DNA of 64,000 bases from an uncultured delta proteobacterium (GTDB lineage Bacteria > Myxococcota_A > UBA9160 > SZUA-336): NCBI GenBank assembly GCA_963704165.1, contig CAVPHD010000004.1:502800-566799 (forward strand), given 5' to 3'. Positions 6,227-37,467 of this stretch are shown piece after piece; the first letter of the stretch is position 1; every line of letters begins with the position of its first letter. Both the position numbers and the translations under genes were made by a program. The notes under the pieces were generated by a model. The model was not told where the DNA came from. It saw only the letters and a program-made list of their open reading frames with translations, and made no database searches.

Positions 6227-7989
6227 CCTGCTCGGCCTCGCGCGGCTTTCTCTCGCGTCCCGGATCGCGGCATGCTTGCGGTCGAGCTCGGCGCGACGGC
6301 ATTCCGAGGCGTCGGATACCCGATTCCCAGCCGATCGATCGCGTAGCCCGCGACCTCCTTGAAGACGGGTGCAGCGACCACGCCGCCGGTGCGGAACCCG
6401 CGCGGCTCGTCGATGAAGACGCCGATCACCAGTCGCGGATTCACGACCGGGACGATCCCGACGAACGATGCGACATAGTCGGTCTGCGAGTACGTGCCGT
6501 TCTTGACCTTCTGCGCCGTCCCGGTCTTGCCCGCGACCGAGACGTGCGGGAGCCCCGCCGCCTTGCCGCTGCCATCGACGACGACCATCCGCATCATCTC
6601 GAGCACGGTGCGCGCAGTGCGCTCGGAGATCGCACGCTCGCCTGCCACGGCGGGCGTGTCGGCGGACGCACGGGTAATGCGTGGGGTCACCCGCACGCCT
6701 CCGTTCGCAAATACCGCCATCGCCGCGACGAGCTGCACGGGAGTCACGGTGACGCCCTGGCCGAAGGACAGATTCGCGCGCTCGATGGCCTGCTTCTCGC
6801 GGATCTCTCGCACGCTGCCGGCGACCTCGCCGGGGAACCCGCTACCGGTCGTGCGGCCGAAGCCGAAGCGGCGCACGCCGTCGACGAGTCGCTGCGATCC
6901 GAGCCGCGCGATGATCTTGGCCGTGCCGATGTTGCTCGAGACGCGCATGATGTCGCTGACGGTGAGCAGGTCGTGGGGCCGGTAGTCGCGGATCGTGCGT
7001 CGCCCGATCCGGTAGCGTCCGCCCTCGCAGTCGAAGACCTCGCCGGGGCTCGTCACTCCGGCTTCGAGTGCGAGCGCGATCGAGAACGGCTTGAACGTGC
7101 TTCCAGGCTCGAAAGTGTCGACAAAAGCGCGTGCGCGGTACGCCGAGGTGTCTTCGAGCCAGAAACGGTTCGGATCGAAGCTCGGTGACTCGGCGAGCGC
7201 CAGGATCTCGCCTGTCCTCGGGTCGAGCGCGACCAGCGTCGCGTGTCTCGCGCCGGTCTTGCGCAGTGACTCGGCGAGCGCCTTCTCCGCGAAGTGCTGA
7301 AGCTCGAGGTCGAGCGCGAGGGTGACCGGCTGCCCCTCTCGCGTCTTGGGCGCCTTCACCTCCGACGGCAGGTACCGCCCGCCACCGTCGCGGTTCACCC
7401 GCAGCTCCGCGCCCGCACCGCGCAGGTCGCGATCGAAGAGCAGTTCCACACCCGAGAGCCCACGCCCGTCGCGATCGGCGAATCCGAGCATCGGGCCCGC
7501 GAGCGAGCCGTTGGGATAGAAGCGGCGCCGTTCGCTGTGCAGGTGGACTCCGGCGATCTCGAGCGCGCGCACGCGATCGGCCGCATCCGGCGTGACCCAG
7601 CGCTGCAGCCAGACGAAGCTCGTCGCCTGCTCGAGCCGACGCTCGATCTCCTTGGCCGGCAGATGGAGCGCCTTCGCGAGCGAGCGCGCCGCGCCGGCTC
7701 GATCCCGGATCTGTCGCGGGGACGCGGCGACCGACTCGACGCTCGCCGATACCGCGAGCGGTCGTCCGCTTCGATCGCGCAGCTCCGCGCGCAGCGCGGT
7801 GAGTTCGACCTTTGCAGCACCCTGACGCGCCGCGCGCGTGGCGAGGAACTCGGCGTCGAGTGTCTGCAGCTGGATCGCGCGCCCGAGCAGCGCGGCGAAG
7901 CCGAGCAGGCCGACGAGCGCAACGGCCTGCAAGCGGCCGGGCTTCAGGCCCGAGCTTCGTCGCCGGCGCGTTCTCCGCGCGGCGCTCAA
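6223..7989 (-). CDS. ftsI: peptidoglycan D,D-transpeptidase (penicillin-binding protein 3-like)
   Basis: 588-aa ORF with N-terminal TM anchor, PBP dimerisation and transpeptidase motifs (STFKP, SSN, KTGT). Confidence 0.88.
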   Translation of the reverse strand: MSAARRTRRRRSSGLKPGRLQAVALVGLLGFAALLGRAIQLQTLDAEFLATRAARQGAAKVELTALRAELRDRSGRPLAVSASVESVAASPRQIRDRAGAARSLAKALHLPAKEIERRLEQATSFVWLQRWVTPDAADRVRALEIAGVHLHSERRRFYPNGSLAGPMLGFADRDGRGLSGVELLFDRDLRGAGAELRVNRDGGGRYLPSEVKAPKTREGQPVTLALDLELQHFAEKALAESLRKTGARHATLVALDPRTGEILALAESPSFDPNRFWLEDTSAYRARAFVDTFEPGSTFKPFSIALALEAGVTSPGEVFDCEGGRYRIGRRTIRDYRPHDLLTVSDIMRVSSNIGTAKIIARLGSQRLVDGVRRFGFGRTTGSGFPGEVAGSVREIREKQAIERANLSFGQGVTVTPVQLVAAMAVFANGGVRVTPRITRASADTPAVAGERAISERTARTVLEMMRMVVVDGSGKAAGLPHVSVAGKTGTAQKVKNGTYSQTDYVASFVGIVPVVNPRLVIGVFIDEPRGFRTGGVVAAPVFKEVAGYAIDRLGIGYPTPRNAVAPSSTASMPRSGTREKAARGRAG

Positions 7990-8321: not shown

Positions 8322-9235
8322 CGCTCACCTCCGCGCAGGCGCGCGCTGCGCGCGCGTGGGTTGCGTCGGATCTCGGCCGCCGAGGGCTTCGTTCCGCGCG
8401 CGACGATGCGCAGGCGCGGCACGTGCCCGCAGCCGCACACGGGGAGATCCGGCGGACAGATGCAGCCCTTCGCTTCGCGGGCCATGAACTGCTTCACCCG
8501 GCGGTCCTCGCCTGAGTGATACGAGAGCACGGCGAGCCGCCCCCCCTCCGCGAGCACGTCGAGCGCGCTCTCCAGCCCCGCGTCGAGCTCCGCGAGCTCG
8601 TCGTTCACGGCCATGCGCAGCGCTTGGAACACGAGCGTCGCCGGGTGATGTCGCCGTTCCGGAAGTCTCACGCCGTCGAGCGCCGCCACGAGCTCCTGCA
8701 CGGTGCGGATCGGTCGCCGAGCGTCGAGCGCGTGCGCGACGCGGCCGGCGGCGGGAACGCCACCGTCCCGGAGCAGCTGCACGAGCTCAGCACCGCTGAC
8801 CCGGTCGAGCAGCTCGGCCGCGGTCTCCCCCGTCGACCGGTCCATGCGCATGTCGAGCGGCACCGGTGTGTCGCCGACGCGGAAGCTCATGCCGCGCTCG
8901 ATCTGGTCGAGGTGGGCGGAGCACACACCGAGATCGAGCAGCACGCCATCGACGGGCAGGGCGTTCGCGGCCGCGGCGACCTCGCGCACGAACGAGAAGC
9001 GCGCGTGAAAGAGCTTCGCGCGCGCGCCGAAGCGGCGGAGACGCTGCTCGGCGACCTCGAGCATCTCGGGGTCCCGATCGAGCCCGACGAGCAGACCATC
9101 GGGGCCGAGCCGCTCGAGGATCTGCTCGGCGTGACCTCCGTGTCCGGTCGTCGCATCGACGATCCGCGAGTCCTCGCGGGGCGAGAGCAGCTCGAGGACT
9201 TCGGCGACCATCACCGGGGCGTGAGAGGGGTTCAC
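8315..9235 (-). CDS. rsmH: 16S rRNA (cytosine1402-N4)-methyltransferase
   Basis: Within ORF 8315..9430(-): ...HAPVMVAEVLELLSPREDSRIVDATTGHGGHAEQILE... (MraW/RsmH SAM-MTase). Probable GTG start overlapping the mraZ stop. Confidence 0.9.
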   Translation of the reverse strand: MNPSHAPVMVAEVLELLSPREDSRIVDATTGHGGHAEQILERLGPDGLLVGLDRDPEMLEVAEQRLRRFGARAKLFHARFSFVREVAAAANALPVDGVLLDLGVCSAHLDQIERGMSFRVGDTPVPLDMRMDRSTGETAAELLDRVSGAELVQLLRDGGVPAAGRVAHALDARRPIRTVQELVAALDGVRLPERRHHPATLVFQALRMAVNDELAELDAGLESALDVLAEGGRLAVLSYHSGEDRRVKQFMAREAKGCICPPDLPVCGCGHVPRLRIVARGTKPSAAEIRRNPRARSARLRGGERC

Positions 9236-9666
9236 CGCGTCGCGCCGCGCAGGTAGCGCGAGTTCTCGGCCTCGTGCTCCTGGGTGCTTTCGATCTCCGC
9301 CTGGTAACGCACGCGATCCCAGATCTCGACGCGGTCGGTGAGTCCCAGGAACGTGATCTCGCGGTCGATCCGAACCAGGCGCCGCAGCGTCGGTGGAATC
9401 AGGATGCGTCCGGCTCGATCGACACTGCATGGCGTCGCGTGTCCGATGATCAAGCGTTCGAGCGCCTCGGCTGCGTCGTTCAGCACGTCGTCCGACAGCC
9501 GCTGTCGGATCTTGTCGAACTTCTCGGCCGGGTAGATCGCGAGACAGCGCGATCGTGCGGTGAGCCAGGGTGGCTGGCTTCCGCGCGTCAAAAGGTCGCG
9601 GAAGTCCTTGGGAAGGCTGGTGCGCCCCTTCTCATCGAGAACGTGCTCGTGGCACCCCCAGAACAT
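9232..9666 (-). CDS. mraZ: transcriptional regulator MraZ
   Basis: ORF 9232..9690(-); MFWGCHEHVLDEKGRTSLPKDFRDLL... matches the MraZ duplicated-domain family. First gene of the dcw cluster. Confidence 0.85.
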   Translation of the reverse strand: MFWGCHEHVLDEKGRTSLPKDFRDLLTRGSQPPWLTARSRCLAIYPAEKFDKIRQRLSDDVLNDAAEALERLIIGHATPCSVDRAGRILIPPTLRRLVRIDREITFLGLTDRVEIWDRVRYQAEIESTQEHEAENSRYLRGATR

Positions 9667-11035: not shown

Positions 11036-12034
11036 GTGAGCGCGAGACGAGCGCCCCGCAGCGTCGAGCCGCGGCCGACGGTCGCGATCACGGGCCTCGG
11101 TACCTTCACGGGTGCGCACATTGCAGAGCGGCTACTCGAGCAGGATCCGCCCGTGCGGGTCGTCGGCCTCGACCTGCGCCAGCCGAGGCGTCTCGAGGGA
11201 CGCGTGCGGTTCCACCGCGTCGATCTGACCGAGCCGACCGCCGACAGCATCGTCGCCGAGATCCTCGAGAAGGAGCGCTGCGAGACGATCCTGCACGCGG
11301 CCTTCTTCACCGATCCCCATCCGGACGTCGAGTACTCCCACGAACTCGAGGTGGTCGGGTCGCTGCACGTGATGAACGCCGCGGCCGCTTCGGGAGTGAG
11401 GAAGCTCGTCGTCACCAGCACCGCGCAGGTCTACGGACCGCACCCGGACAACCCGAACTTCCTGACGGAAGAACACCCGCTTCGACCGCCCCGCGGCGCA
11501 CATTCGCTCCGCGACCGGGCGGAGGTCGAGGGACTGCTCCGCATCTTCGCGCAACGCCACCGTTCGCTCGTCGTGACGTCGCTTCGGCCCTGCTGGATCG
11601 TCGGTCCGAGCTATGCATCGGCGGTCACGCGAAGGCTCGAGGTCGGTCGCGTGCTCACGCTGCTCGGCTACGACCCGCTGCTGCAGTTCCTGCACGAATC
11701 CGACTGGCTCGATGCCGTCGAGCTCGCACTCGAACGTGATGCGCCCGGCGCCTTCAACCTCGCCGCGGACGGCGTGCTGCCGCTCTCGACGCTGCTGCGA
11801 CTGGCGGGAAAGCGCGCCTTGCCGCTCCCGCATCCGTTGCTCCATCGAATCACCTACCTCGAGTCGATCGCGCGAACCGGAGATCCGCCCGCGGCCTTCT
11901 TCGACTACCTGCGCTTCCTCTGGATCGTCGATACCGCCCGCGCTCGCTTTGAGCTCGGCTTCGATCCCGTCTACACGACGAAGGAGGCGTGGATGAGCTT
12001 CGTCGTCGAGCGCAAGCTCCGGGGCTACCGGTGA
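11036..12034 (+). CDS. NAD-dependent epimerase/dehydratase family protein
   Basis: 332 aa; N-terminal Rossmann TGLGTFTGAHIAERLL, extended-SDR features (YxxxK-like context). Confidence 0.8.
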   Translation: MSARRAPRSVEPRPTVAITGLGTFTGAHIAERLLEQDPPVRVVGLDLRQPRRLEGRVRFHRVDLTEPTADSIVAEILEKERCETILHAAFFTDPHPDVEYSHELEVVGSLHVMNAAAASGVRKLVVTSTAQVYGPHPDNPNFLTEEHPLRPPRGAHSLRDRAEVEGLLRIFAQRHRSLVVTSLRPCWIVGPSYASAVTRRLEVGRVLTLLGYDPLLQFLHESDWLDAVELALERDAPGAFNLAADGVLPLSTLLRLAGKRALPLPHPLLHRITYLESIARTGDPPAAFFDYLRFLWIVDTARARFELGFDPVYTTKEAWMSFVVERKLRGYR

Positions 12035-13110
12035 GCCCGCCGGGCGCATCCGACGAGAGCGAGCGCGCTCGGCTCGAGCTTCTCGACGAGCTGCGCGCAT
12101 CGGTGCGCTCGCTGCGCTTCGAGCTCGACCATCGGTTCGGCATCCGCGATGGCGGTCCGCCCGAGAGCGAAGCTGCGATCGACGACCCGGAGATCGAGGA
12201 CCCGCCGGCCGAGTCCGGTAGCGGCTTCTTCGAGGGGCTCGCCCGCCAGCTTCGCGGGCGCCTCGAGGACATCGACATCGTGAAGCTCTACGAGGCGCTG
12301 CGCGAACGCGTCTCGATCCCGGGCGCGGCGGACGTGTCCGCCGAAGTCGACGAGCTCGGGCTCGATGCGCAGTACCTGACGCGCGCGCGACGCTGGCTCG
12401 ACTGGCTCTTCGACTCGTGGTGGCGCGTGCAGGTCACGGGAATCGAGCTGATCCCGGACGCGAGCCGCGTGCTCTTCGTCGCCAACTCGTCGGGGATCCT
12501 GCCGTGGGATGGCCTGATGGTCGCGCACGCGGTCGAGCGTCTGCACCCCTCCGGCCGGCGTCCCCGTCCGCTCGTCGCGGACTGGCTCGCGACGCTGCCT
12601 TTCTCTCAATCGAGGCTGGCGCGTCTGGGCGCGGTTCGAGCCTGCACCGAGAACGCCGAGCGGCTTCTGCTCGCCGATCAATGGGTGATCGCGTTTCCGG
12701 AGGGACAGAAGGGCGCGCTCAAACCGTTTCGCGATCGCTACCGACTGCGGCGCTTCGCGCGCGGCGGCTTCGTGCCGCTCGCCGCGCGCCTGCGCGCCGC
12801 GATCGTCCCCGTCGCCGTCGTCGGAGCCGAGGAGCTCTACCCGATCCTGTTCGAACCGCGACTGCTTCGACGGCTGTTGGGCGTTCCCGTTCCGATCACC
12901 CCCACGTTCCCACTCCTGGGTCCGCTCGGAGTCATTCCGCTTCCGAGTCACTGGCGGATCCGTTTTGGCGAGCCCATCTGGTTCGACGACGATTCGCGGG
13001 AGCGCGTCTCGGATCCCCTCTACGTGAATCGCACCCGCGAGCAGGTGCGCGGAGCCGTTCAAGCCCTGCTTGAAGAAGAGCTGCCACGTCGCCGATCCAT
13101 ATTCTCCTGA
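12031..13110 (+). CDS. lysophospholipid acyltransferase (PlsC-like) family protein
   Basis: ORF 11989..13110; FPEGQKG motif typical of glycerolipid acyltransferases. Probable GTG start overlapping the upstream stop. Confidence 0.6.
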   Translation: MSPPGASDESERARLELLDELRASVRSLRFELDHRFGIRDGGPPESEAAIDDPEIEDPPAESGSGFFEGLARQLRGRLEDIDIVKLYEALRERVSIPGAADVSAEVDELGLDAQYLTRARRWLDWLFDSWWRVQVTGIELIPDASRVLFVANSSGILPWDGLMVAHAVERLHPSGRRPRPLVADWLATLPFSQSRLARLGAVRACTENAERLLLADQWVIAFPEGQKGALKPFRDRYRLRRFARGGFVPLAARLRAAIVPVAVVGAEELYPILFEPRLLRRLLGVPVPITPTFPLLGPLGVIPLPSHWRIRFGEPIWFDDDSRERVSDPLYVNRTREQVRGAVQALLEEELPRRRSIFS

Positions 13111-13126
13111 TGCGAGATCGTTCCTG

Positions 13127-14689
13127 ATGGCATCGGCGGCCGCGGACTCCTTGCCGGACGAACGGTCGCTTCACGTCTCGCGCGGTACGGGAGCGGCGTG
13201 CGTTCTGGCGCTCATCCTCGCCGTGACGCTCGAGGCGTCCGCACAGGGCGGAGGAGAACGCATCGCGCTGAAGCTGCGCGATGGAAGCCAGGCATCGCTC
13301 GAACGCGGTCAGCTCGTCGCGCGGGGGGCCGATCTGACCGAGCTGCACCGAGTACTGGCGGAGTTCGACCTCCGTCCGGGCGCGTTGTCCCCCACCTTCG
13401 TGCGAAGTCCGGCGGCTCTGCGAGCCGAGCACGCGCTCGCCGAGCGCAGGGGCGGACGCCGGCTCGGTGAGCTCGCGCTCTTCTTCAACCTCGAAGTCGC
13501 GCCGGGAACCGACGTGGCCGCATTCGTCGCCGCGCTCCGCGCGCTCCCCGAGGTCGAGAGCGCCGACCCCTGGCCGAAGCCCGCACCACCGCCGTTCGAC
13601 CTCGATCCACCCACGCCCGACTACTCCGCGCTGCAGACGTTCAAGGCGGCTGCGCCCGTCGGCATCGGCGCCGCCGGCTTCGTCGGAATCACGGGCGCGG
13701 ACGGCTACGGGACACGCTTCGTCGATGTCGAGTACGAGTGGCGCCTCGACCACGAGGATCTCGAGCTTGCCGCGAGTACGGTGGTCCCGGTTGGAACCGC
13801 GGTGAATCCGTTTCCCGACGACGGCAGTCACGGAAATGCGGTGCTCGGCCTGTTGTCCGCGCGCGCGAACGGGTACGGCGTCACCGGGCTCGTGCCGGCG
13901 TCGCAGGTCCGTGTCGCCGCCGCGCAGACGGCGGAGCACGGCTGGGACGTCGGGCGCGCGATCGAGCAGGCGATCGTGGCCTTCGGCCCGACCGTGGGCC
14001 CCGGTGACCTGATCCTGATCGAGCAGCAGATGTACGTCTGCGGTTTCGATGGCTCCGGCGGGGGCCAGACGGGCGCGGGTCCAGTCGAGGGATATCCGGC
14101 CTGGCGTGCCGCGATCGCGACCGCCACGGCGCTCGGTGTCATCGTCGTCGAGGCGGCGGGCAACGGCGGTGTCGATCTCGACGCGCCGAGCTGCAACGGC
14201 GTCTTCGATCGCGGGCTCGGAGATACCGGTGCGATCGTGGTCGGTGCGGGATCGGCTTCGTCGCGCGCGCCGCTCGCCTATGCGTCCTACGGCAGCCGCG
14301 TCGACGTTCAGGGAGTCGCGGAGGGCATCGTGACGCTCGGCGGGGGCTCGCTCTTCGGCGGCGGCGACCCGTTGCAGAAGTATCAGTCGAACTTCGGGGG
14401 CTCTTCGTCCGCCGCTGCGATCGTGGCCGGCGTCGCGCTCGCGGTGCAAGGCCTGCGACGGGCGGGCGGCCACGCGCCGCTCGACCCGTTCGCACTTCGC
14501 GACCTGCTCGTGCAGACCGGCACGCCGCAGGCGCCCGATCCGCGTCAGATCGGGCCGCTGCCGGATCTCGGTCAGGCCTACGCCATCGGTGTACCGGCGC
14601 TGTTGATCCGGACGCTGCCCTACTGGGCGGCGCTCGCGCTGTGTGGGCTGCTGCTCGCCGCCGTCGCGATCCGGATGCGCGCGCGCTAG
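13127..14689 (+). CDS. secreted subtilisin-like serine protease (peptidase S8) with C-terminal Cys-containing TM segment and Arg-rich tail
   Basis: ORF 13070..14689; signal peptide (AACVLALILAVTLEASAQG). S8 His (DGSHGNAV) and Ser (FGGSSSAAAIVAGVA) motifs. C-terminal LALCGLLLAAVAIRMRAR. Confidence 0.85.
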   Translation: MASAAADSLPDERSLHVSRGTGAACVLALILAVTLEASAQGGGERIALKLRDGSQASLERGQLVARGADLTELHRVLAEFDLRPGALSPTFVRSPAALRAEHALAERRGGRRLGELALFFNLEVAPGTDVAAFVAALRALPEVESADPWPKPAPPPFDLDPPTPDYSALQTFKAAAPVGIGAAGFVGITGADGYGTRFVDVEYEWRLDHEDLELAASTVVPVGTAVNPFPDDGSHGNAVLGLLSARANGYGVTGLVPASQVRVAAAQTAEHGWDVGRAIEQAIVAFGPTVGPGDLILIEQQMYVCGFDGSGGGQTGAGPVEGYPAWRAAIATATALGVIVVEAAGNGGVDLDAPSCNGVFDRGLGDTGAIVVGAGSASSRAPLAYASYGSRVDVQGVAEGIVTLGGGSLFGGGDPLQKYQSNFGGSSSAAAIVAGVALAVQGLRRAGGHAPLDPFALRDLLVQTGTPQAPDPRQIGPLPDLGQAYAIGVPALLIRTLPYWAALALCGLLLAAVAIRMRAR

Positions 14690-15255
14690 AGGGAGCGCTC
14701 GCGCGGACGATCCACGGTCGCGAGTCGGGCCTCGAAGCTCTCGAGCGCGGTCGCGAGCCGTTCGAGGTTCTTGTTCAGCGCCTCGAGGTCGCCGCGCGTC
14801 GGCAGATCGGCCACGTGCAGCACGTGCTCGACCGCGGCGTGGACCGTTCGCGTGATCTCGGACGGGTCGAACGGTGCGCCGTCGCCAGGAGTACGAATCC
14901 AGCGTCGCATGTTGTCGCGCATCTCGTTCAGGTTGGTCTCGACGTCCCCTACACCGCGCCGCACCAGGCTGTAGAGGGCGTCTCCACCGCGTTGGATCAG
15001 CTCGGTGAGAAGCGTGCCGGAGACTGCAGAGTCGCGGTCTCCGCGATTCCCCCGCTGATCATCCACCAGGATCTGCGACAGCACGATCGGCGTGATCTCC
15101 TCGCCGGTCTCGTTGTCGATCACGCAGATGTCGTGACCCTCGCGCACGAGCTCGGAGATCCCTTTCAACGTGATGTACCGGCTCGACTCCGTGTTGTAGA
15201 GCTTCCGGTTCGCGTAGCGCTTGATCAGGATCGCCATCGGTCGCGAGTATCCCAC
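14686..15255 (-). CDS. phaR: polyhydroxyalkanoate synthesis repressor PhaR
   Basis: MAILIKRYANRKLYNTESSRYITLKGISELVREGHDICVIDNETGEEITPIVLSQIL matches the PhaR N-terminal DNA-binding domain; likely start at the internal M (about 15237). Confidence 0.8.
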   Translation of the reverse strand: MGYSRPMAILIKRYANRKLYNTESSRYITLKGISELVREGHDICVIDNETGEEITPIVLSQILVDDQRGNRGDRDSAVSGTLLTELIQRGGDALYSLVRRGVGDVETNLNEMRDNMRRWIRTPGDGAPFDPSEITRTVHAAVEHVLHVADLPTRGDLEALNKNLERLATALESFEARLATVDRPRERSL

Positions 15256-15542
15256 CGCACCTTGGGTCGGTCAAACCCTTCGCGCTCGCGCTTCCGTCGC
15301 GTGTGGACGCTCGGCGCGATCGCATCGGAGAGCGCGGCGAAGATCTCGCGCACGCGCTCGGCGGCCGGATCGTGGGCGGCGCGCTCCGCCCAGCGCTTCT
15401 CTTCCGCGCGAAGTGCGGCGCGCACGCGCTCGAGGGAAGGCGCGCTTCCGCCGAGCACGCTGGCCCCGGAAGCGAGCGCGAGAGCGAGCTCTTGCGCGGA
15501 GCGCACGAGATGCTCGAGCGCGCGTTGACCGGGGTCAGGCAT
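15225..15542 (-). CDS. hypothetical small helical protein, translationally coupled between ArsA-like ATPase and phaR
   Basis: 105-aa ORF; start overlaps the stop of the upstream ArsA-like gene and its end overlaps the phaR start. Alpha-helical Ala/Glu/Arg-rich composition. Confidence 0.35.
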   Translation of the reverse strand: MPDPGQRALEHLVRSAQELALALASGASVLGGSAPSLERVRAALRAEEKRWAERAAHDPAAERVREIFAALSDAIAPSVHTRRKREREGFDRPKVRWDTRDRWRS

Positions 15543-16713
15543 CGGCCTTCGGCGCGAAGATCAGACTCCCGATGCGCGCGAGCGCCTCGAGCTCGTGAAC
15601 GTCCTCGCTGAAGAGCGGCACCACGCGCACGGCATCGGCCTCGAGCGGCAGTGCCTTCTCGAGCCGTGCCCGCACCGCGAGGTCGCGACGCGCGAGCGCG
15701 GCCTGCGCCCGCGTCGACGCGACCAACGCGCGCGCGCTGCTCGCGGAGTCGAGTTCGGGCGCGGCCGCGTCGATCGCGCCCGTCAGCCACGAGATCGCGC
15801 GCTCCACTTCCTGAACGTCGTCGGCGGGAGGATCGCCGGCGCCGGGCCAGGTGTGCACGCGATTCAAGACCAGTCCGGCGAGCTGGATCCCTTCCTCTTG
15901 CAGACGCCGCCAGAAGGATTCCGCGCTCTTCGCCTGTTGGAGATCGGGCCCCGCCACCAGCACGAAGCCGCAGATCGGGTCGCGAAGCAGACCGGCGACC
16001 TCGCGCGCGCGCTCGGAGAAGCCGCCGAGCATCTCCTCGAAGGCGAGCAGGAACTCGGAGATCGACGTCAGGAACTCGAGTCCGGTGATCCGCTCGAGAC
16101 CGCGCATCATCAGCTCCGACCCGGAGCGGAAGAGGCGAAAGCTGGCCCGTCCGACGACCGCGGCGGGGTGGAGGAGCACCGTCAGGAACTGGCTCTCGAG
16201 AAATCCGGCGAGCCGGCGCGGCGCGTCCAGGAAGTCGAGCGCGTGGGAGGCGGGGGGCGTGTCGAGCACGATCAGATCGTACTCCCCGTCGGCGTGGATC
16301 TGGCGCAGCTTTTCCATCGCCGAGTACTCGCGGCTCCCGCCGAGCGCGTCGGTCAGGTTTCGATAGATCGGATTCGAGTAGATCCGCGCGCGCGCGTCCG
16401 GATCGGAGGCGAAGCGCTCGACGAGCTCGTCGAACGTGCGCTTGGTGTCGAGCATGAGTGCGGCGAGCTTGCCGTCGCCCGTCACACCCGCTTCGCGCAG
16501 TCGGTCGCGCGGAACCTCGCGGGGAACGTGGTCGAGCGCGCCGGTTCCCAGCGCGTCCGCGAGCCGTCGCGCGGGATCGATCGTCATCACGAGCACGGAC
16601 TTCCCGGCGCGCGCGCCGGCGAGGCCCAGCGCTGCGGCGATGGTGGTCTTGCCGACGCCTCCGGTGCCGACGGTGACGAGAACGCGACAGTCGAGCCAGC
16701 GTTCGGGTTTCAC
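15535..16713 (-). CDS. ArsA/GET3-family anion-transporting-type ATPase (second of tandem pair)
   Basis: Lower part of ORF 15535..17763; VKPERWLDCRVLVTVGTGGVGKTTIAAALG... with deviant Walker A and ArsA signature DTPPASHALDFLDAP. GTG start overlaps the stop of the upstream ArsA gene (GTGA). Confidence 0.85.
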   Translation of the reverse strand: MKPERWLDCRVLVTVGTGGVGKTTIAAALGLAGARAGKSVLVMTIDPARRLADALGTGALDHVPREVPRDRLREAGVTGDGKLAALMLDTKRTFDELVERFASDPDARARIYSNPIYRNLTDALGGSREYSAMEKLRQIHADGEYDLIVLDTPPASHALDFLDAPRRLAGFLESQFLTVLLHPAAVVGRASFRLFRSGSELMMRGLERITGLEFLTSISEFLLAFEEMLGGFSERAREVAGLLRDPICGFVLVAGPDLQQAKSAESFWRRLQEEGIQLAGLVLNRVHTWPGAGDPPADDVQEVERAISWLTGAIDAAAPELDSASSARALVASTRAQAALARRDLAVRARLEKALPLEADAVRVVPLFSEDVHELEALARIGSLIFAPKADA

Positions 16714-17711
16714 TTCGAGACCTCGGCTCGCGACTGCGCGAGCGCCGCTCCGAGATGATCGGCGAGCGCGGCGACGCCGGATGGACCATCCACGCCCTGA
16801 TCGAGCCAGGGCAGAACGACCGGAGCGACGCCGAACTCGCCTTCGAGTCGGGCGAGGAACCCCGCCTGCATGCGCGTGCGAGAGAGCCGATGTCGCACGG
16901 AGGCACAGAGCGCGACGGGCTCCACGAGCGGAGACGGGGCGCTCGCGGCGTCGAGGGACGCGACGACCTCCAGCACGCGCTCGGCGTCGGGCAGCGCGAG
17001 CGGGGGCTCGACTCCGTTCGCGATCACCGGACCGAGCGCGAGCCCGAGCTCGCGAATCCGCGCGCGCAGCTCGAGCGTCTCGTTCACCGGTAGCTCCTCG
17101 AGCAGGCTGACGATCAGGACCGCCGTTCGAGCGGGGTCCGTGAGCAGCGCTTGAACCAGATCGGTGTTCCGGCGAAGCGGGCCGATCCGCACGGTGTCGA
17201 GGATCACCGTCGGGGTCGAGAGCAGGGAGAGCCCATGGCCGGTCGCGGGTGCGTCGATCACGATCAGCGGCCAGAGCGCTGATCCCTTCGAATCCTCGAG
17301 CGAGACCAGGTGCCAGAGCTTTCCCAGCGTGATCAGCTCGCGCCAGCCGGGCGCCGCCTCGAGAAAGCGTTGGAAGCCCGCGTTCCCGACGATCGCCCGC
17401 GCCAGGGCGCGCACGCGGATCTGCAGCTCCAGGTATTCGAGCAGGGCCTCCTCGGGAAGGATCCGAAGCGTGAACAGATTGGGCGCAGCCCGGACCGGAT
17501 CGCGCCGCGGGTTCGCACTTGCGAGAGGCCGGTTCTCGCAGAGCAGATCCGGCAGCACCGACGTGTGGCCGAGCTCGACGACGAGCGTTTTGACGCCGGC
17601 GTCCGAGGCGAGTCGGCCGAGCGCCGCGGCGACGCTCGTCTTGCCGGTGCCACCCTTGCCGGTGACGAGCAAGAGGCGCCGCGCGAGCAGTTGCTTCGTC
17701 AGTTCCGACAT
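16710..17711 (-). CDS. ArsA/GET3-family ATPase (first of tandem pair)
   Basis: 333 aa: LLLVTGKGGTGKTSVAAALG..., IVIDAPATGHGLSLLSTP (ArsA DTAPTGHT-like motif). Confidence 0.85.
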   Translation of the reverse strand: MSELTKQLLARRLLLVTGKGGTGKTSVAAALGRLASDAGVKTLVVELGHTSVLPDLLCENRPLASANPRRDPVRAAPNLFTLRILPEEALLEYLELQIRVRALARAIVGNAGFQRFLEAAPGWRELITLGKLWHLVSLEDSKGSALWPLIVIDAPATGHGLSLLSTPTVILDTVRIGPLRRNTDLVQALLTDPARTAVLIVSLLEELPVNETLELRARIRELGLALGPVIANGVEPPLALPDAERVLEVVASLDAASAPSPLVEPVALCASVRHRLSRTRMQAGFLARLEGEFGVAPVVLPWLDQGVDGPSGVAALADHLGAALAQSRAEVSK

Positions 17712-17765
17712 CGGCGCACCTCAAGCGGAGCGACGCTCGCGCCGACCGGGGAGTGGGGCCCATGA

Positions 17766-19217
17766 ATGACCGTTGAGTGCGAGAAATGCCAGACGCGCTT
17801 CCACGTCGCCGATGCCCGCATTCCCGCCAAGGGTGCGCGCGTCCGCTGCTCGCGTTGCCACCATCGGTTCCACATCACCCTGTCTTCCGCCGCGCCCGGG
17901 CAGTCGACCGCCGCAGCCAAGGATAACGCGGCCGAGGAGATCCTCGGCGGCGAGGCCGCGCGCGAAGAAGACCAGCTCGACAATCCGGAGTTCATCTTCG
18001 ATCGGCCGGAGGGTGACCACGGAAGGACCGGTTCCGTTCGTACCGACCTCGCCGACTCGGGACGCCAACAGCCGCATCTCGCCGAGCCGCCGGAACCCGC
18101 GACGCCGCCCGCACCTCGGGAGGAGCGCGTCGTTTCGAGCGGAGGGGTGACCGCGCAGCAGATGCTCGACGAGGGTGTTCCGGATCTACCGACGGGCCGC
18201 ATCGACGTTCTCGGCTCGCTCGGCGAGACCGACAGCCTGATCGGCAGCCCGGACGAACCGAATGTCTCGACCGCGAGCACGGAGCTCGATGACGCGTTCA
18301 CCGAGTCGAGCGAATCGCTCGCGGTCGTTCCGCCCGCTCGCCCGGCCTCCGCCGAGATCGCCGCGATCGCGGCGGAGCTCGGCGAGGACGAGGACAGCTC
18401 CTTCGCCGATTGGGATCCGCTCTCGACGCCCGCATCCACGCCGGCCGCGGGGATGGTCGAAGCGCCGGCGCCGGCGCCGACACCGGCGACGAAGACGGTT
18501 CTCGACTCGATCCAACCCAAGCCCGCAGCTCGACCCAAGCGGCGTGCGTTGGCCGAGGCCCCGACCTTCGATCCCGAAGCGGTGAGTCCCATCCGTCTGA
18601 TTCTGCGGGTCGCCGCCGTGATCGTCGGCTTGGCGCTCCTGGGTGCCGCCGGCCGCATACTCTGGCTCCAGCGCGGCGGCGATTCATCGGCGCCCGAGGT
18701 CGTGCAGGCGGCGGGCTGGATCGCGGCGGATCTCGAGACCTTCGTCGCGCGAAACGCGGACGGCGAGCGCGTGGTCGTCGTGCGGGGAAACCTGTTCCCG
18801 GAGGGCTCGGCCCCGCCTCCCCGGGTCGAGGTACGACTGCTCGGCGCAGATGGTGAGGCGCTCGTGGTCTCCCCGAGGACCTGGCTCGAGCGGATCGACG
18901 ACGCCGAGATCGCGCCTGAGCGACTCGAACTCCGACTGGCGCAGGCGGGTGGCGACATCGCCGGCATGGGCCAGATGGTCACAGGCTTCACGGCGGTGAT
19001 TCCCGATCCGCCGCCGGGCATCCACCGCGTCGAGGTTTCGCTGAGAGCGCCCGAGCGAACCCCGGCCGGTACGGCCACGGCCGACGTTCCAGCGGCGCCG
19101 CCCGCCGACGAGCCCGCGGCCGCCCCAGCGACCGAGACCGCGTCGCCGAGTCCTGCGGCGTCCTCGGGCCTCCCGGAGTCGGACGCGGTCGTTCCCGCTG
19201 CACCCGCGCCGGAGTAG
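17766..19217 (+). CDS. MJ0042-type zinc-ribbon domain protein with Pro/Ala-rich linker, TM segment and DUF3426-like C-terminal domain
   Basis: N-terminus MTVECEKCQTRFHVADARIPAKGARVRCSRCHHRFHI (CxxC...CxxC zinc ribbon). Long low-complexity P/A/E-rich middle. TM (ILRVAAVIVGLALLGAAG) followed by a globular C-terminal domain. Confidence 0.75.
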   Translation: MTVECEKCQTRFHVADARIPAKGARVRCSRCHHRFHITLSSAAPGQSTAAAKDNAAEEILGGEAAREEDQLDNPEFIFDRPEGDHGRTGSVRTDLADSGRQQPHLAEPPEPATPPAPREERVVSSGGVTAQQMLDEGVPDLPTGRIDVLGSLGETDSLIGSPDEPNVSTASTELDDAFTESSESLAVVPPARPASAEIAAIAAELGEDEDSSFADWDPLSTPASTPAAGMVEAPAPAPTPATKTVLDSIQPKPAARPKRRALAEAPTFDPEAVSPIRLILRVAAVIVGLALLGAAGRILWLQRGGDSSAPEVVQAAGWIAADLETFVARNADGERVVVVRGNLFPEGSAPPPRVEVRLLGADGEALVVSPRTWLERIDDAEIAPERLELRLAQAGGDIAGMGQMVTGFTAVIPDPPPGIHRVEVSLRAPERTPAGTATADVPAAPPADEPAAAPATETASPSPAASSGLPESDAVVPAAPAPE

Positions 19218-19231
19218 CCTCGAGGCTACTC
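19214..19231. terminator. perfect palindrome between convergent genes (putative bidirectional terminator hairpin)
   Basis: GTAGCCTCGAGGCTAC lies exactly between the stop of the zinc-ribbon gene (+) and the stop of tatA (-); no obvious U-tract. Confidence 0.3.
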
Positions 19232-19414
19232 GTTCTTCTCGTCGTCACCGTTCTTGGGCGTGACGTCGATCGCGGTCGGCTCCTTCAGCGCGCCCCGGAA
19301 GTTCTTGATGCCCTCGCCGAGGCCCTTTCCGATCTGCGGCAGACGGCTCGCCCCGAAGATCACGATCACGATCGCGAGGAGGATCAGGAGCTCGGTTGCG
19401 CCAATGCCGAACAT
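19226..19414 (-). CDS. tatA: twin-arginine translocase subunit TatA/E
   Basis: 62 aa: [43 protein letters not shown], a canonical TatA. Confidence 0.9.
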
Positions 19415-22941: not shown

Positions 22942-24039
22942 CTAGCTGATGATGAGCACCGAGTTTACCCCGCCCGCGGGGCCTTCGACGCGACGGGGAT
23001 TGCTCGGGTCCGGCTGCCATTCACCATCGACGAAGTAGCGGTACTGATACACGCCCGGTCCCAGACGCACGACCTTCTCCCAGGTGCCCTTCGGGCCCAG
23101 CCTCGTCTCGACGCCCTGGTCGGGGATCCAGTTGTTGAAGTCGCCCGCGAGCTGGACCTCGCGCACGTTCGGGTTCTTGAACGTGAAGACCACGCCCTTG
23201 GCGGAGGCCGACGCGACCTCGATCGGATCGGGCTGCGGAGCCTTGGGTTTGGCGGGCAGCTGCTCCTCTTCGCGGTCGTACAGGACTTCGAGAGCGAGCG
23301 ACATGTAGTCGACGAATCCGTACGAGCGGCGGTCGAGCTTCGCGATCGGAATCCCGCGCTGCGCCGCTTCGCGCAGGCGCACGTTCGAGCGGATCACCGT
23401 GTCGAAGACGAGGTCCTTGTAGGTCTCGCGGATCTCCGCCAGCGCTCGCTTCGCGAATCGCGTGCGGCCGTCGAAGAGCGTCGGCAGGATGCGGATCTTC
23501 AGCGAGTGGCCGATCCGATCCTCGAGCAGGCCGATCGTCTCGAGCAGCTTGCTCACGCCGTGCATCGAGAAGTAGCTCGTCTCGAGCGGGATGATGACTT
23601 CCTGCGCGGCGCGCAGCGCGTTGAACGTCAGGATCCCGACGTTGGGCGGGCAGTCGATCAGGATGAAGTCGTACTGCTTCTCGAGCTTCGCGATCGCCGC
23701 GGCGAGTCGCTCCGTGCGACCCCTCGCTCCCTCGGCGCCGAGCTTCTGCTCGAGCGCGGAGAGGATCACGCCGGACGGAGCGACGTCGAGGTTCTGCGAG
23801 GCGTTGGTGATCACCTCGTCGAGCTTCGCACCGGCGCCATCCGGTTCCGCCAGCACTTCGTAGAGGTTCTCGTCGACTTCTTCGGGATCGATGCCGAGGC
23901 CGAGCGTGGCGTGCGCCTGCGGATCCATGTCGACCACGAGCACCGCATGACCCTCGGCGGCGAGACATCCCGCGAGACTCACGACGGAGGTGGTCTTGCC
24001 GCAACCACCTTTCTGATTCATGACCGCGATGCAGCGCAT
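22942..24039 (-). CDS. ParA/MinD-family ATPase fused to a C-terminal CBM48 / AMPK-beta-type glycogen-binding domain
   Basis: N-terminus MRCIAVMNQKGGCGKTTSVVSLAG... (deviant Walker A KGGxGKT, Walker B FILIDCPP). C-terminal about 90 aa VVFTFKNPNVREVQLAGDFNNWIPDQG...GVYQYRYFVDGEWQPDPSNPR...GVNSVLI matches the AMPK-beta GBD/CBM48 fold signature. Confidence 0.85.
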   Translation of the reverse strand: MRCIAVMNQKGGCGKTTSVVSLAGCLAAEGHAVLVVDMDPQAHATLGLGIDPEEVDENLYEVLAEPDGAGAKLDEVITNASQNLDVAPSGVILSALEQKLGAEGARGRTERLAAAIAKLEKQYDFILIDCPPNVGILTFNALRAAQEVIIPLETSYFSMHGVSKLLETIGLLEDRIGHSLKIRILPTLFDGRTRFAKRALAEIRETYKDLVFDTVIRSNVRLREAAQRGIPIAKLDRRSYGFVDYMSLALEVLYDREEEQLPAKPKAPQPDPIEVASASAKGVVFTFKNPNVREVQLAGDFNNWIPDQGVETRLGPKGTWEKVVRLGPGVYQYRYFVDGEWQPDPSNPRRVEGPAGGVNSVLIIS

Positions 24040-35475: not shown

Positions 35476-37467
35476 TCAGCTCGCCTTCTCGACGATCGGG
35501 ATCACGAGCACCACCCCCGGCACGAGCTTCGCGAGATCGACGTCGGGGTTGTAGCGTCGGATCAGCCACGTCGGCACGGCGTACTTCTTGTGCGACAGCA
35601 GCCAGAGCGTTTCCCCCGGTCGCAGCTTGTGCTCGACCGTGGTCGCGACGCGGAAGCTGCCGAAGAAGTCCTCCTCGATTCCCTTGTGGAACTCGAGGCG
35701 GCGCTGAAGGAAGACCTCGGCGGTGACTTTCGCGAAGTCGAGCTTCAGGCTCTGGCCGACCCGGATGGCGCGCCCCCTCTTCAGCTTGTTCAACGCGATC
35801 AGACGCTGTGGGGTGACCTGCAGCCAGTCCGCGAAGTGGCCGAGCGTCTCGCCGGCATCGACGATCACCCGGTCGCCATCGACGCGGAGGAAGTCCGAGC
35901 TGTCGGGCGCCAGCGGTGGAACGGGTGCAGGAGGACTCACGGCGGCGACGAGGGGGGCAGGCGGCGCCTCGGCCGAAGCGCGCGCCGTCGGCTCTGCGGA
36001 CGTCTTGGGCGCAGGCTTCGGCAGCGTCGAGGCCTGCGCCGTCCGCACGACCTCGAAGGCGGGCTTGGATGCGGGAGCCGCGCCCGCGCGATCGGGAAGC
36101 TGGAGCACCTGGCCGGGGTAGATCGTCTTTCGCGCGCCGATGTCGTTCTCGGCCACGAGTGCGGCGACGCTGGTGCGGTGGCGCTGGGCGATCCGGCCGA
36201 GTGAATCGCCACGCCGAACGGTGTAGTAGCGGTTCTCGTGCTGGGTCGCGTGCCGGCTCGCCTTCGGCACGGCGGCGAGCCAGGTCGAAGCGTCCCCGAC
36301 GACGGTGCCCGCGGGGAGCCGAAGCGTGTAGCCTTTCGGGATCCGTTTGTCGGAGCGGAGCACCGGCGGACGCAGGGCCGGGTTCAGCGCCGCGATCGTC
36401 TCGCGCGACACCCCGAGGCCCGCCTCGAGATCGGCGACGTCCGCGTAGAAGGGCAGCACGACGGAATCGACCACGCGCGGTTCGTCGCGAACGAGCGGGC
36501 CGAAGTACGACTCGTAGCTGGGCAGGATCTTTCGCGCGGCGAGGAACTGCGCGTAGAAGTTCCTCGACGCGAATCCGAAGGTGGGGCCGTCGTAGCGCGC
36601 GACGATCACGTCGATCTTGCTCGTGCCGAGCTTCTTGACCGCGCGGTTCATGCCGGCCGCACCGTGGTTGTAGGCGGTGAGCGCGAGCGGCCAGTTTCCG
36701 AGCACGGAGTAGTTCTCGCGCAGGAGTCGCGCCGCGGCATCGGTCGCGGTCACCGGGTCGAGGCGCTCGTCGACCACGTAATCGACCTTCATGAAGCGTT
36801 TGCCGGTGCTGCGCATGAACTGCCAGACACCCGCGGCGCCGTACTTCGAATACGCGTGCACGTTGAACGACGACTCGACGTGGGGCAGGTACGCCAGATC
36901 CTCGGGCATGCCGCGGTCCCGGAAGTGGGCGCGCATCTCGGCCTCGTATCCGCCGGAGACGATCACGCCCTCGCGGAACTTGTCGCGCTGCCCGAGCTGG
37001 AAGCGCAGGCGCTCTCGCGCCTCGCGGAAGTCGCCGCGTCTGGGCGCGCGGCCGAGCGCTGCCTCGAAGGCGAGCAAGACCTCGCGCTCGCGGTCGTCGC
37101 GCGCCTCGGAGCCGGCGGAAAAGCGATCGAGCGCGGCGCGCCAGCGATCCTTCGAGTTCTCGACGATCGCCTCGCGTCTTCGCGCGTTCCGTTCGCCCTC
37201 GAAGCGCAGCACGTCGTAGACCACGCCGAGATTTCGCGCATCGTGCAGGAAGCCGCCGTCGGTGCTCGATTCCAGATACACCCGCATCCAGAAGGCGACG
37301 GCCGGCCGCAGGCTCTCCGGCTCCGGGAACGGATCGCTCGGAGCCGCCGCTTGCGCGCGCAGACCCGCGCATACGCAAATCAGCGCAACGATGCCGAACA
37401 CGCGCGGGAATCCACTCACGAATCCTACCCCCGACCGACAAGCCCTCTTCGTCGCCACGACGAGCAC
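35476..37467 (-). CDS. membrane-bound lytic murein transglycosylase D-like (SLT domain + LysM repeats)
   Basis: Signal peptide; SLT catalytic motif ...YLPHVESSFNVHAYSKYGAAGVWQFM; C-terminal LysM modules (YTVRRGDSLGRIAQRH..., LWLLSHKKYAVPTWLIRRYNP). Confidence 0.85.
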   Translation of the reverse strand: MLVVATKRACRSGVGFVSGFPRVFGIVALICVCAGLRAQAAAPSDPFPEPESLRPAVAFWMRVYLESSTDGGFLHDARNLGVVYDVLRFEGERNARRREAIVENSKDRWRAALDRFSAGSEARDDREREVLLAFEAALGRAPRRGDFREARERLRFQLGQRDKFREGVIVSGGYEAEMRAHFRDRGMPEDLAYLPHVESSFNVHAYSKYGAAGVWQFMRSTGKRFMKVDYVVDERLDPVTATDAAARLLRENYSVLGNWPLALTAYNHGAAGMNRAVKKLGTSKIDVIVARYDGPTFGFASRNFYAQFLAARKILPSYESYFGPLVRDEPRVVDSVVLPFYADVADLEAGLGVSRETIAALNPALRPPVLRSDKRIPKGYTLRLPAGTVVGDASTWLAAVPKASRHATQHENRYYTVRRGDSLGRIAQRHRTSVAALVAENDIGARKTIYPGQVLQLPDRAGAAPASKPAFEVVRTAQASTLPKPAPKTSAEPTARASAEAPPAPLVAAVSPPAPVPPLAPDSSDFLRVDGDRVIVDAGETLGHFADWLQVTPQRLIALNKLKRGRAIRVGQSLKLDFAKVTAEVFLQRRLEFHKGIEEDFFGSFRVATTVEHKLRPGETLWLLSHKKYAVPTWLIRRYNPDVDLAKLVPGVVLVIPIVEKAS

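Follow-up and report, generated by a model that had tools for sequence, protein, structure and literature searches.

BagA and BagB make up a widespread bacterial Get3-like ATPase whose structure has been solved and whose mycobacterial mutants have altered phenotypes with glycerol, nitric oxide, citrate and antibiotics. Hu in 2019 and Whitaker in 2020 are said to have described it as a Get3-like heterodimer without a role in anion transport. The mycobacterial bagAB genes (Rv3679-Rv3680; MSMEG_6193/6195) form an operon of two ATP-binding proteins, and have been linked to glycerol and nitric oxide toxicity, to killing by citrate and to survival of streptomycin (PMC10597346, PMC12216072). Here we describe a distant relative of this pair, clustered with a gene for a small helical protein and a PhaR-like gene, in a 64,000-nucleotide stretch of DNA (hereafter the window; about 69-70% G+C) from an uncultured delta proteobacterium, a Myxococcota-type metagenome-assembled genome (MAG; contig CAVPHD010000004.1, positions 502,800 to 566,799). 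It is compared with loci fetched from other genomes and metagenomes, which carry identifiers such as L001.

In the ArsA/Get3 family the first lysine of the P-loop reaches the ATP of the partner across the dimer, and an aspartate in switch I activates the catalytic water in cis (PMC12415280). The window pair resembles Get3/TRC40, which targets tail-anchored proteins in eukaryotes and archaea, in its fold, in its intradimeric Walker A P-loop and in the switch II histidine (DAPATGH in BagA), and its dimer would be expected to open and close with nucleotide. Get3, however, forms a homodimer whose two sites are equivalent and whose zinc clasp is built from a CxxC motif, whereas the window encodes a predicted heterodimer that would have a single complete site and has no CxxC motif. 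With ArsA the pair shares the principle of two non-identical halves acting as one unit, and the logic of a trans lysine and a cis switch-I aspartate (PMC12415280), but ArsA is a single fused chain with lysine and aspartate in both halves, a Cys114/Cys173/Cys422 site and a setting in ars operons, none of which is found for the window pair. The Group 8 homologues of the Myxococcales are also Get3-like proteins of Myxococcota, but in these a single chain unites two domains, with a TRC40 insert and a CxxC motif (Traffic 2019, PMC6593721), in contrast to the two genes without CxxC described here.

That two half-size ArsA/Get3 paralogues can form a heterodimer unrelated to arsenic is already known, since this is what BagAB is. 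The searchable literature on BagAB contained nothing relevant outside the mycobacteria, and likewise nothing that joins Get3 with phasins or PhaR with Myxococcus or TatA. As far as that literature shows, what is new is the explicit single-site reading of the active-site motifs, the extension of the family to Myxococcota-type lineages and others, and the accessory set of small helical, PhaR-like, tatA and zinc-ribbon genes.

A distant BagAB pair

With 73.5 and 79.7 bits, both ATPases exceed the 24.3-bit cut-off of the Pfam family ArsA_ATPase, and each matches a different subunit of BagAB. The first matches the NCBIfam BagA model NF053622 with 140.8 bits over profile positions 5-322 of 325 and the BagB model with 32 bits, while the second matches the BagB model NF053621 with 313.3 bits over positions 12-367 of 371 and the BagA model with 49 bits; the equivalog cut-offs, 400 bits for BagA and 521 bits for BagB, are missed by both. 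The top matches in the Protein Data Bank (PDB) both come from the solved structure of the M. tuberculosis Rv3679-Rv3680 complex, one from each chain: 6bs3_A (Rv3679) for the bagA-like protein at E=3.9e-24 and 6bs3_B (Rv3680) for the bagB-like protein at E=2.5e-61 over residues 10-383; for the latter, Get3/TRC40 and archaeal ArsA-like proteins rank next. More than 7,800 relatives of the bagB-like protein were found at E<=1e-10. Taken together, these matches show that the pair encodes, as judged from sequence, the two subunits of a BagAB-class ATPase, a member of the ‘intradimeric Walker A’ family with the Get3/ArsA fold, and that M. tuberculosis BagA/BagB are orthologous to the two ATPases, though distantly. 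The suggestion in the first-pass annotation that the half-size paralogues form a heterodimer thus gains a direct structural precedent.

The likeness to the M. tuberculosis proteins (Rv3679/Rv3680; PDB 6BS3, 6BS4, 6BS5) extends to the order of the genes, bagA before bagB, with full-length best matches for each subunit, and to their motifs: GKGG without DPA in BagA, and GxGG, TIDPA(K/R)RLA and DTPP...LDFLDAP in BagB. Neither pair is accompanied by ars genes or has a CxxC motif. The two differ in that BagB is only 40% identical to M. tuberculosis BagB and BagA less so, both below the equivalog cut-offs, and in that the organisms belong to different phyla.

A scan with a BagB alignment, restricted to one genome per species, returned 80 loci from Actinomycetota, Myxococcota, Gammaproteobacteria, Acidobacteriota, Binatia, Thermodesulfobacteriota and others. 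In nearly all of them BagB is directly preceded by a BagA homologue, which excludes a sequencing frameshift or a recent split as the origin of the pair, and separate genes were found in all 83 loci of the motif survey described below. The concern that the window might hold a single frameshifted gene can therefore be set aside.

Complementary active-site motifs predict one complete ATP site

The motif survey covered 83 loci with readable BagA and BagB N-termini, actinobacterial loci included. The P-loop of BagA reads GKGG[VT]GK[ST] in 71 of 71 readable cases, and a DP[AS] switch-I motif occurs in none of the 83 BagA sequences. In BagB the P-loop reads G[SATGP]GGVGKT in 81 of 81 readable cases, and a DPA switch I (TIDPA[K/R]RLA) is found in 81 of 83. 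The window proteins follow this division: BagA has the P-loop GKGGTGKT, with Lys19 as the trans-acting lysine, and VVELGH where the DPA motif would be, and BagB has the P-loop GTGGVGKT without a trans lysine, the switch I TIDPARRLA (Asp46) and also DTPPASHALDFLDAP. The motifs therefore show the two subunits to be complementary in their predicted catalytic equipment, BagA having the trans lysine and lacking the switch-I aspartate, and BagB the reverse. With motifs so divided we infer that only the ATP bound to BagB would meet both elements, and that each heterodimer would have one fully equipped ATP site; the loss, across the family, of the trans lysine from BagB and of the switch-I aspartate from BagA predicts one working site in general.

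Comparison with ArsA and Get3 profiles

The first-pass annotation had thought arsenite efflux unlikely, and the profile searches agree. The arsenite-pump model TIGR04291 scores 39.9 and 43.4 bits against a cut-off of 650, the separate 333- and 392-residue proteins do not match the fused two-domain chain of ArsA (about 580 residues), and no arsR, arsB, arsC, arsD or acr3 gene was found among the roughly 40 larger open reading frames (ORFs) of the window scanned with Pfam, or in the syntenic loci. Each protein has only two cysteines, at positions 58 and 269 in BagA and 9 and 248 in BagB; those of BagB are not conserved in M. tuberculosis BagB, and Cys9 is variable within the window's own clade. 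The three-cysteine metalloid site of ArsA would probably not be formed by either predicted protein.

The Get3/ArsA subfamily model TIGR00345, named in the first-pass annotation as a way to place the two copies, was run on both, and its cut-off of 135 bits was missed (66.5 and 71.7 bits). Neither ATPase has a CxxC zinc motif, and neither a tail-anchored client nor a Get1/2-like receptor was found in the conserved neighbourhood.

Organisation of the locus

The features of the locus are collected in Table 1. The first-pass annotation had described a cluster of four minus-strand genes with overlapping stop and start codons, and the coordinates and junctions bear this out; the GTGA overlap of the two ATPase genes is present, as are the motifs quoted for them, DAPATGHG and DTPPASHALDFL. 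The G+C content at third codon positions is 0.79-0.85 in three of the four genes (the ORF caller dropped bagB), and homologues number in the hundreds to thousands, both of which indicate that the four are real genes and not chance ORFs. The bagA/bagB overlap of 4 nt and the bagB/small-ORF overlap of 8 nt recur in L001-L003, and in L004 both are 4 nt. These junctions show bagA, bagB and the small ORF to be translationally coupled. An Rfam scan of the whole window returned no RNA family at the gathering threshold.

Table 1. Coordinates of the genes and sites discussed in the text (window positions unless a locus identifier is given).
Feature	Position	Strand	Description
bagA-like	16710-17711	-	333 aa, Get3/ArsA-fold ATPase subunit
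bagB-like	15535-16713	-	392 aa, GTG start; GTGA overlap with bagA stop
Small helical ORF	15225-15542	-	105 aa; ATGcCTGA overlap (8 nt) with bagB stop
PhaR-like gene	14686-15237	-	183 aa; PHB_acc_N domain and C-terminal long helices
Predicted sigma-70-type promoter of PhaR-like gene	15246-15274	-	Inside 3' end of small ORF
Divergent intergenic region, bagA / zinc-ribbon gene	17712-17765	.	54 bp; alignment A5 (window and L001-L004)
MJ0042-type zinc-ribbon protein gene	17766-19217	+	483 aa; PF13717 48 bits, TIGR02098 44.6 bits
tatA	19226-19414	-	62 aa; PF02416 60.9 bits
240-254-aa divergent gene	L127:6137-6898, L102:4663-5385, L135:6141-6905	-	No Pfam match

Upstream of bagA, an alignment of the window with L001-L004 contains a conserved CTTGAGG at 17719-17725, which is probably the ribosome-binding site, and a palindrome of the type TCGG-N2-CCGA at 17737-17745, imperfect in the window, which is a candidate operator. 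The divergent zinc-ribbon gene keeps its position throughout the window's clade. Its product had been labelled an MJ0042 zinc-ribbon/DUF3426 membrane protein; the zinc ribbon and the membrane segment (one, at about residues 271-302 in a transmembrane scan) hold good, but DUF3426 was seen only as a weak, sub-cut-off match in one homologue.

The small helical protein

The 105-residue product of the small ORF has no Pfam or NCBIfam match at E<=0.01 and no significant PDB match by sequence. A word-index search found 47 close homologues, and an exhaustive profile search of 1.84 billion proteins returned 74 representatives, nearly all of 60-175 residues; from these relatives we take the protein to be real and its family to be small and fast-evolving. 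The AlphaFold2 (AF2) model has three to four helices at moderate confidence (predicted local distance difference test, pLDDT, 71), a fold search gave no match (E>3) and is uninformative, and a scan found no transmembrane segment. The first-pass annotation had wondered whether this was a phasin-like protein, a notion that the Pfam, NCBIfam and fold searches do not sustain.

Throughout the window's clade (L001-L007 and L017) a homologue stands after bagB. Three sets of sequences, with lengths of 104-128 residues in the window set (alignment A3) and L001-L004 and of 164-210 residues in L006, L007 and L017, are related by hhalign at probabilities of 99%, 91% and 82%. The conserved core is a helix pair with the motif E-x-R-W-x2-R-A-x2-D-P-x-A-x2-V, and the C-terminal FDRPRxRWDTRxRWRS is nearly invariant. 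The small proteins encoded in L022, L085, L087 and L088, loci of low-GC lineages discussed below, were also considered as homologues; they align collinearly with the small ORF and have an H-L-x3-R-E-L-x-L-A motif in common with it, but at hhalign probabilities of only 1-17% homology was not demonstrated.

The PhaR-like gene and its promoter

The PhaR-like protein carries a PHB_acc_N domain (PF07879, 89.2 bits against a cut-off of 25), followed by a C-terminal half with a sub-cut-off phasin signal (PF05597, 22 bits) and a weak BMFP-like signal. It falls short of the PhaR equivalog TIGR01848 (78 bits against 109.45) and has no match to PF05233 (PHB_acc) at E<=0.01, so that of the label ‘PhaR’ given at first pass the N-terminal domain stands and the identity with PhaR is not supported. 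There are 2014 homologues, mostly of 181-185 residues, some of which public sources name ‘PhaR’, while NCBI names the relatives simply ‘DNA-binding domain-containing protein’. The AF2 model is confident for residues 1-63 (pLDDT about 90) and of low confidence for the helices. A PDB sequence search gave no significant match, the fold search gave an uninformative ExbD/TolR-like resemblance of the N-domain (E=0.24), and no transmembrane segment was found by the scan. By analogy with PhaR, the repressor of polyhydroxyalkanoate (PHA) synthesis (TIGR01848), and PhaF, in which a PHB_acc_N domain precedes amphipathic helices or a phasin is joined to a DNA-binding tail, binding to DNA and to hydrophobic surfaces is plausible; in PhaF, however, the order of the domains is the reverse of that in the window protein, and PhaR differs in passing the cut-off that the window protein misses, in its PF05233 match and in its pha context, no pha gene (phaC, phaP, phaA or phaB) being found among the scanned window ORFs or in the loci inspected, where the PhaR-like genes are linked to tatA and sometimes to bagAB.

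The mechanical ORF list placed the start of the PhaR-like gene at GTG 15255. The ATG at 15237 (MAILIKRYANRKLY...) is the more likely start, because most homologues have 181-185 residues and because a promoter -10 element occupies 15251-15246; whichever start is taken, the overlap with the end of the small ORF remains. The predicted promoter consists of TTGACC, a 17-nt spacer and TG-n-GATACT, an extended -10, and in the coding DNA of the small-ORF tail it reads TTTGACC, N17, TGGGATACT. It is the sole sigma-70-like site in 14400-18100, a region in which 0.1 would be expected by chance. In L001-L004 the ATG of the PhaR-like gene is preceded by the element TTTGAC-N17-(T)GGGATACT or GTGGATACT, which in L001 is intergenic, past the end of the small ORF (9486); its retention in intergenic DNA indicates that the constraint acts on the DNA, and would explain the conserved FDRPRxRWDTR tail of the small ORF. 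As the -10 ends 8 nt before ATG 15237, the PhaR-like mRNA is predicted to be nearly leaderless. The conserved promoter sequence thus shows that the PhaR-like gene has a predicted start of transcription of its own and is not simply the fourth cistron of an operon; read-through from bagAB is possible in addition. The overlapping stop and start codons that had led to its inclusion in the cluster are real, but its description as a mere co-transcribed member does not hold.

Gene neighbourhood of bagAB and of the PhaR-like gene

The order seen in the window (zinc-ribbon gene, divergent bagA, bagB, small ORF, PhaR-like gene) is kept in L001-L007 and L017, with BagB identities down to 47%, which answers the question of whether the four-gene arrangement persists in related genomes. 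In L001-L004 the gap between the small ORF and the PhaR-like gene is about 40-48 nt. Synteny in this clade extends from PGM/EI24/tatA to acyltransferase, epimerase, deacetylase and dcw genes. A second order, with all genes on one strand, is found in low-GC lineages (L022, L085, L087 and L088): (tatA), small ORF, PhaR-like gene, bagA, bagB. In L022, a MAG of 43% G+C, and in L088 genes for TatA, a small ORF, the PhaR-like protein, BagA and BagB are co-stranded, and the PhaR-like/bagA junction is a 4-nt overlap in L088 and a 26-nt gap in L022. A third order occurs in L136, where the PhaR-like gene is divergent from a series comprising an Mrp/NUBPL-type ATPase, an esterase, bagA, bagB, gshA and a 192-aa gene. 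The rearranged loci tell more than the syntenic ones, and the association of the PhaR-like gene with bagAB in three gene orders argues for a functional link.

The PhaR-like family has a second and more frequent neighbour. A metagenome scan with the PhaR-like alignment yielded 30 loci having at least 2.5 kb of upstream sequence, and in 20 of these a tatA gene is found no more than 4 kb upstream of the PhaR-like gene; in 18 of the 20 it is within about 1.1 kb and on the same strand, with no bagAB present (L089, L096, L108, L112, L127, L133, L135, L139, L147 and others are examples of tatA linkage). This subfamily of PHB_acc_N proteins is therefore primarily tatA-linked, and many ‘PhaR’ annotations in Myxococcota-type genomes may be unconnected with PHA. 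The two genes adjoin directly in L089, L096 and L132. Elsewhere a conserved gene of 240-254 codons stands between them on the opposite strand; it was found in 41 fetched loci. In L102 tatA, the 240-aa gene and a zinc-ribbon gene lie on one strand, divergent from the PhaR-like gene, and in the window tatA comes right after the zinc-ribbon gene. Neither the scanned window ORFs nor the precomputed Pfam annotations of the syntenic loci L001-L004 include a pha gene, and a screen of 1.78 Mb of fetched loci for the PhaC lipase box (G-x-C-x-G-G) found no candidate, a weak negative given how crude the screen is.

Actinobacterial bagAB loci follow a different pattern, DUF4177-like gene, bagA, bagB, whiB-like gene, ponA-like gene, and have no PhaR-like neighbour. 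Where actinobacteria have a DUF4177-like gene upstream and whiB4-like and ponA2-like genes downstream, the window has the small helical, PhaR-like, zinc-ribbon membrane protein and tatA genes. In three such actinobacterial loci (L061, at 6720-6875 and 9126-9422, both minus strand; L013; and L084) the DUF4177-like gene, of 51-68 codons, lies divergently upstream of bagAB; a WhiB-like gene is found downstream in L061 and a large PonA-like gene downstream in L061 and L084, a layout that matches M. tuberculosis Rv3678A to Rv3682.

Proposed mechanism

The best explanation overall, which we regard as reasonably probable, is that the locus encodes a BagAB-class asymmetric ATPase with a coupled small protein and a PhaR-like gene under its own promoter, set within a recurrent linkage of PhaR-like genes and tatA. 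According to this model only BagB-bound ATP would see the complete catalytic set, and the heterodimer would be both obligate and asymmetric, one site being active and the other probably regulatory. Like Get3 and ArsA, the dimer would use ATP to close and open, and in doing so would take up and let go of a helical cargo that is hydrophobic or amphipathic; the small protein could, speculatively, serve as adaptor or cargo. Following the logic of PhaR, the PhaR-like protein might be a DNA-bound repressor that is freed on contact of its amphipathic helices with a hydrophobic surface; it might control the bagAB locus and/or tatA, and a connection to TatA or to membrane homeostasis could be imagined. 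Recurring neighbours of this kind are a new clue to the function of BagAB, and make the PHB_acc_N/amphipathic-helix protein, the small helical protein and TatA concrete candidates for BagAB partners in non-actinobacterial lineages.

Several points weigh against this model. Both ATPases stay below their equivalog cut-offs, which makes them distant members of the BagAB family and not equivalogs, and their function may differ from that of BagAB; we know of no cargo for BagAB in any organism. The heterodimer is predicted from the likeness of the window pair to other sequences, the single-site model is drawn from motifs, and a conserved glutamate in BagA, two residues upstream of the missing switch-I aspartate, might stand in for it. 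The regulatory role of the PhaR-like protein is proposed by analogy, and its operator is a candidate. The whole region is syntenic in the window's clade, so that adjacency there is weak evidence on its own, and the majority of bagAB loci, including all the actinobacterial ones and nine other non-actinobacterial ones, have no PhaR-like gene, just as PhaR-like loci mostly have no bagAB. As both genes so often occur alone, any coupling between them would be facultative.

Alternative explanations

One alternative is that the neighbourhood carries no functional meaning, bagAB and the small ORF having been inserted into an older tatA/PhaR-like locus, with the PhaR-like gene unrelated to the ATPases. 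The separate promoter, the 40-48 nt between the small ORF and the PhaR-like gene in L001-L004, and the many loci in which PhaR-like genes accompany tatA and not bagAB, or bagAB stands without a PhaR-like gene, all agree with this, but the three independent gene orders and the tight spacing in the low-GC lineages (the overlap in L088 and the short gap in L022) do not, and by our rough estimate two single-copy genes would come to lie within a few kb of each other by chance in the order of 0.3% of cases; we consider this explanation unlikely. Of similarly low probability, in our view, is a true bacterial GET pathway in which BagAB takes the C-terminal helix of tail-anchored proteins to the inner membrane. 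The Get3 fold, the ranking of Get3/TRC40 and archaeal ArsA-like proteins directly after BagAB among known structures, and a BagB helical subdomain that is rich in hydrophobic residues by sequence would suit such a role, yet the CxxC motif is missing, TIGR00345 is missed (66 and 72 bits against 135), the conserved neighbourhood contains no tail-anchored protein or Get1/2-like receptor, and neither the small ORF nor the PhaR-like protein has a transmembrane segment. We know of no Get1/2/4/5 partners for a BagAB-type pair, and Hu and co-workers in 2019 reportedly found no tail-anchored client in M. tuberculosis.

A PHA-granule system, as raised in the first-pass annotation, would have the ATPase pair position, partition or load proteins on granules under the control of PhaR and together with a phasin-like small protein. 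ParA and MinD, related P-loop ATPases, do position cellular cargo, the PhaR-like protein has both PHB_acc_N and a weakly phasin-like C-terminus, and its homologues go by the name ‘PhaR’ in public sources. Against this stand the sub-cut-off PhaR score (78 against 109 bits) and missing PF05233 match, the small ORF without a phasin match, the absence of pha genes from the roughly 40 scanned window ORFs and the syntenic Pfam lists, the empty PhaC screen, the occurrence of actinomycetotal BagAB without a PhaR neighbour, and the PhaR-like gene itself, which has its own promoter and whose subfamily sits beside tatA, not pha genes, in two-thirds of the loci (20 of 30). No tie to PHA granules is in evidence, and we judge a granule role to be distinctly improbable. 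The idea of an ArsA arsenite pump split by frameshift or by evolution has in its favour the name of the Pfam family, ArsA_ATPase; with TIGR04291 at 40 and 43 bits of the 650 needed, separate genes in 83 loci, no ars genes among the window ORFs scanned, and few cysteines, not conserved with M. tuberculosis BagB, it is refuted for practical purposes, and the system is not an arsenite pump. A more ambitious version of the mechanism preferred here would unite BagAB, the small protein, the PhaR-like protein and TatA in one membrane-homeostasis module, which we rate as a long shot. The single-site heterodimer would then hold or deliver small proteins with hydrophobic helices, such as TatA or the amphipathic PhaR-like protein, soluble pools of TatA being known in some bacteria, and the PhaR-like protein would be a PspA- or PhaR-style sensor that leaves DNA for a stressed membrane and so tunes the expression of tatA and bagAB. 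If true, this would give the BagAB family, the M. tuberculosis proteins included, both its first cargo and its first regulatory circuit.

Other genes of the neighbourhood

In the loci with the 240-254-aa gene, a lytic transglycosylase with SLT and LysM domains is often encoded upstream and a Ser/Thr-kinase-like protein downstream. The window has an SLT+LysM protein gene at 35476-37467 on the minus strand, about 16 kb away, whose family lies directly upstream of tatA/PhaR-like genes in other Myxococcota-type loci, and this distance suggests that an ancestral tatA/PhaR-like neighbourhood was rearranged in the lineage of the window. The gshA gene that follows bagAB in L136, a metagenome locus of 48% G+C (L136:3114-4421, minus strand), encodes glutamate-cysteine ligase, and the pair is preceded there by an Mrp/NUBPL Fe-S carrier ATPase gene and an esterase gene. 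This arrangement is a single hint of a thiol/redox context, and recalls the phenotypes with methylglyoxal and nitric oxide that have been reported for bagAB in mycobacteria.

An overlapping pair of genes for an NAD-dependent epimerase and a PlsC-type acyltransferase (11036-13110, plus strand) stands beside the module throughout the window's clade, and the acyltransferase gives a weak DAGAT signal in L002. Between the acyltransferase and the PhaR-like gene the window alone has a gene for an S8 subtilase (13070-14689, plus strand), which is absent from L001-L004 and whose stop codon overlaps that of the convergent PhaR-like gene (14686-14689). The subtilase has a hydrophobic, signal-like region at its N-terminus, and at the other end a hydrophobic segment leads into a tail rich in Arg (...LPYWAALALCGLLLAAVAIRMRAR), a C-terminus reminiscent of a C-terminal sorting signal. 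Further away, and conserved in L001 and L004, a gene at 22942-24039 on the minus strand encodes a ParA/MinD-type ATPase fused to an AMPK1_CBM/CBM48 glycogen-binding domain, which may, from this domain combination, be a ParA-like protein that binds polysaccharide granules.

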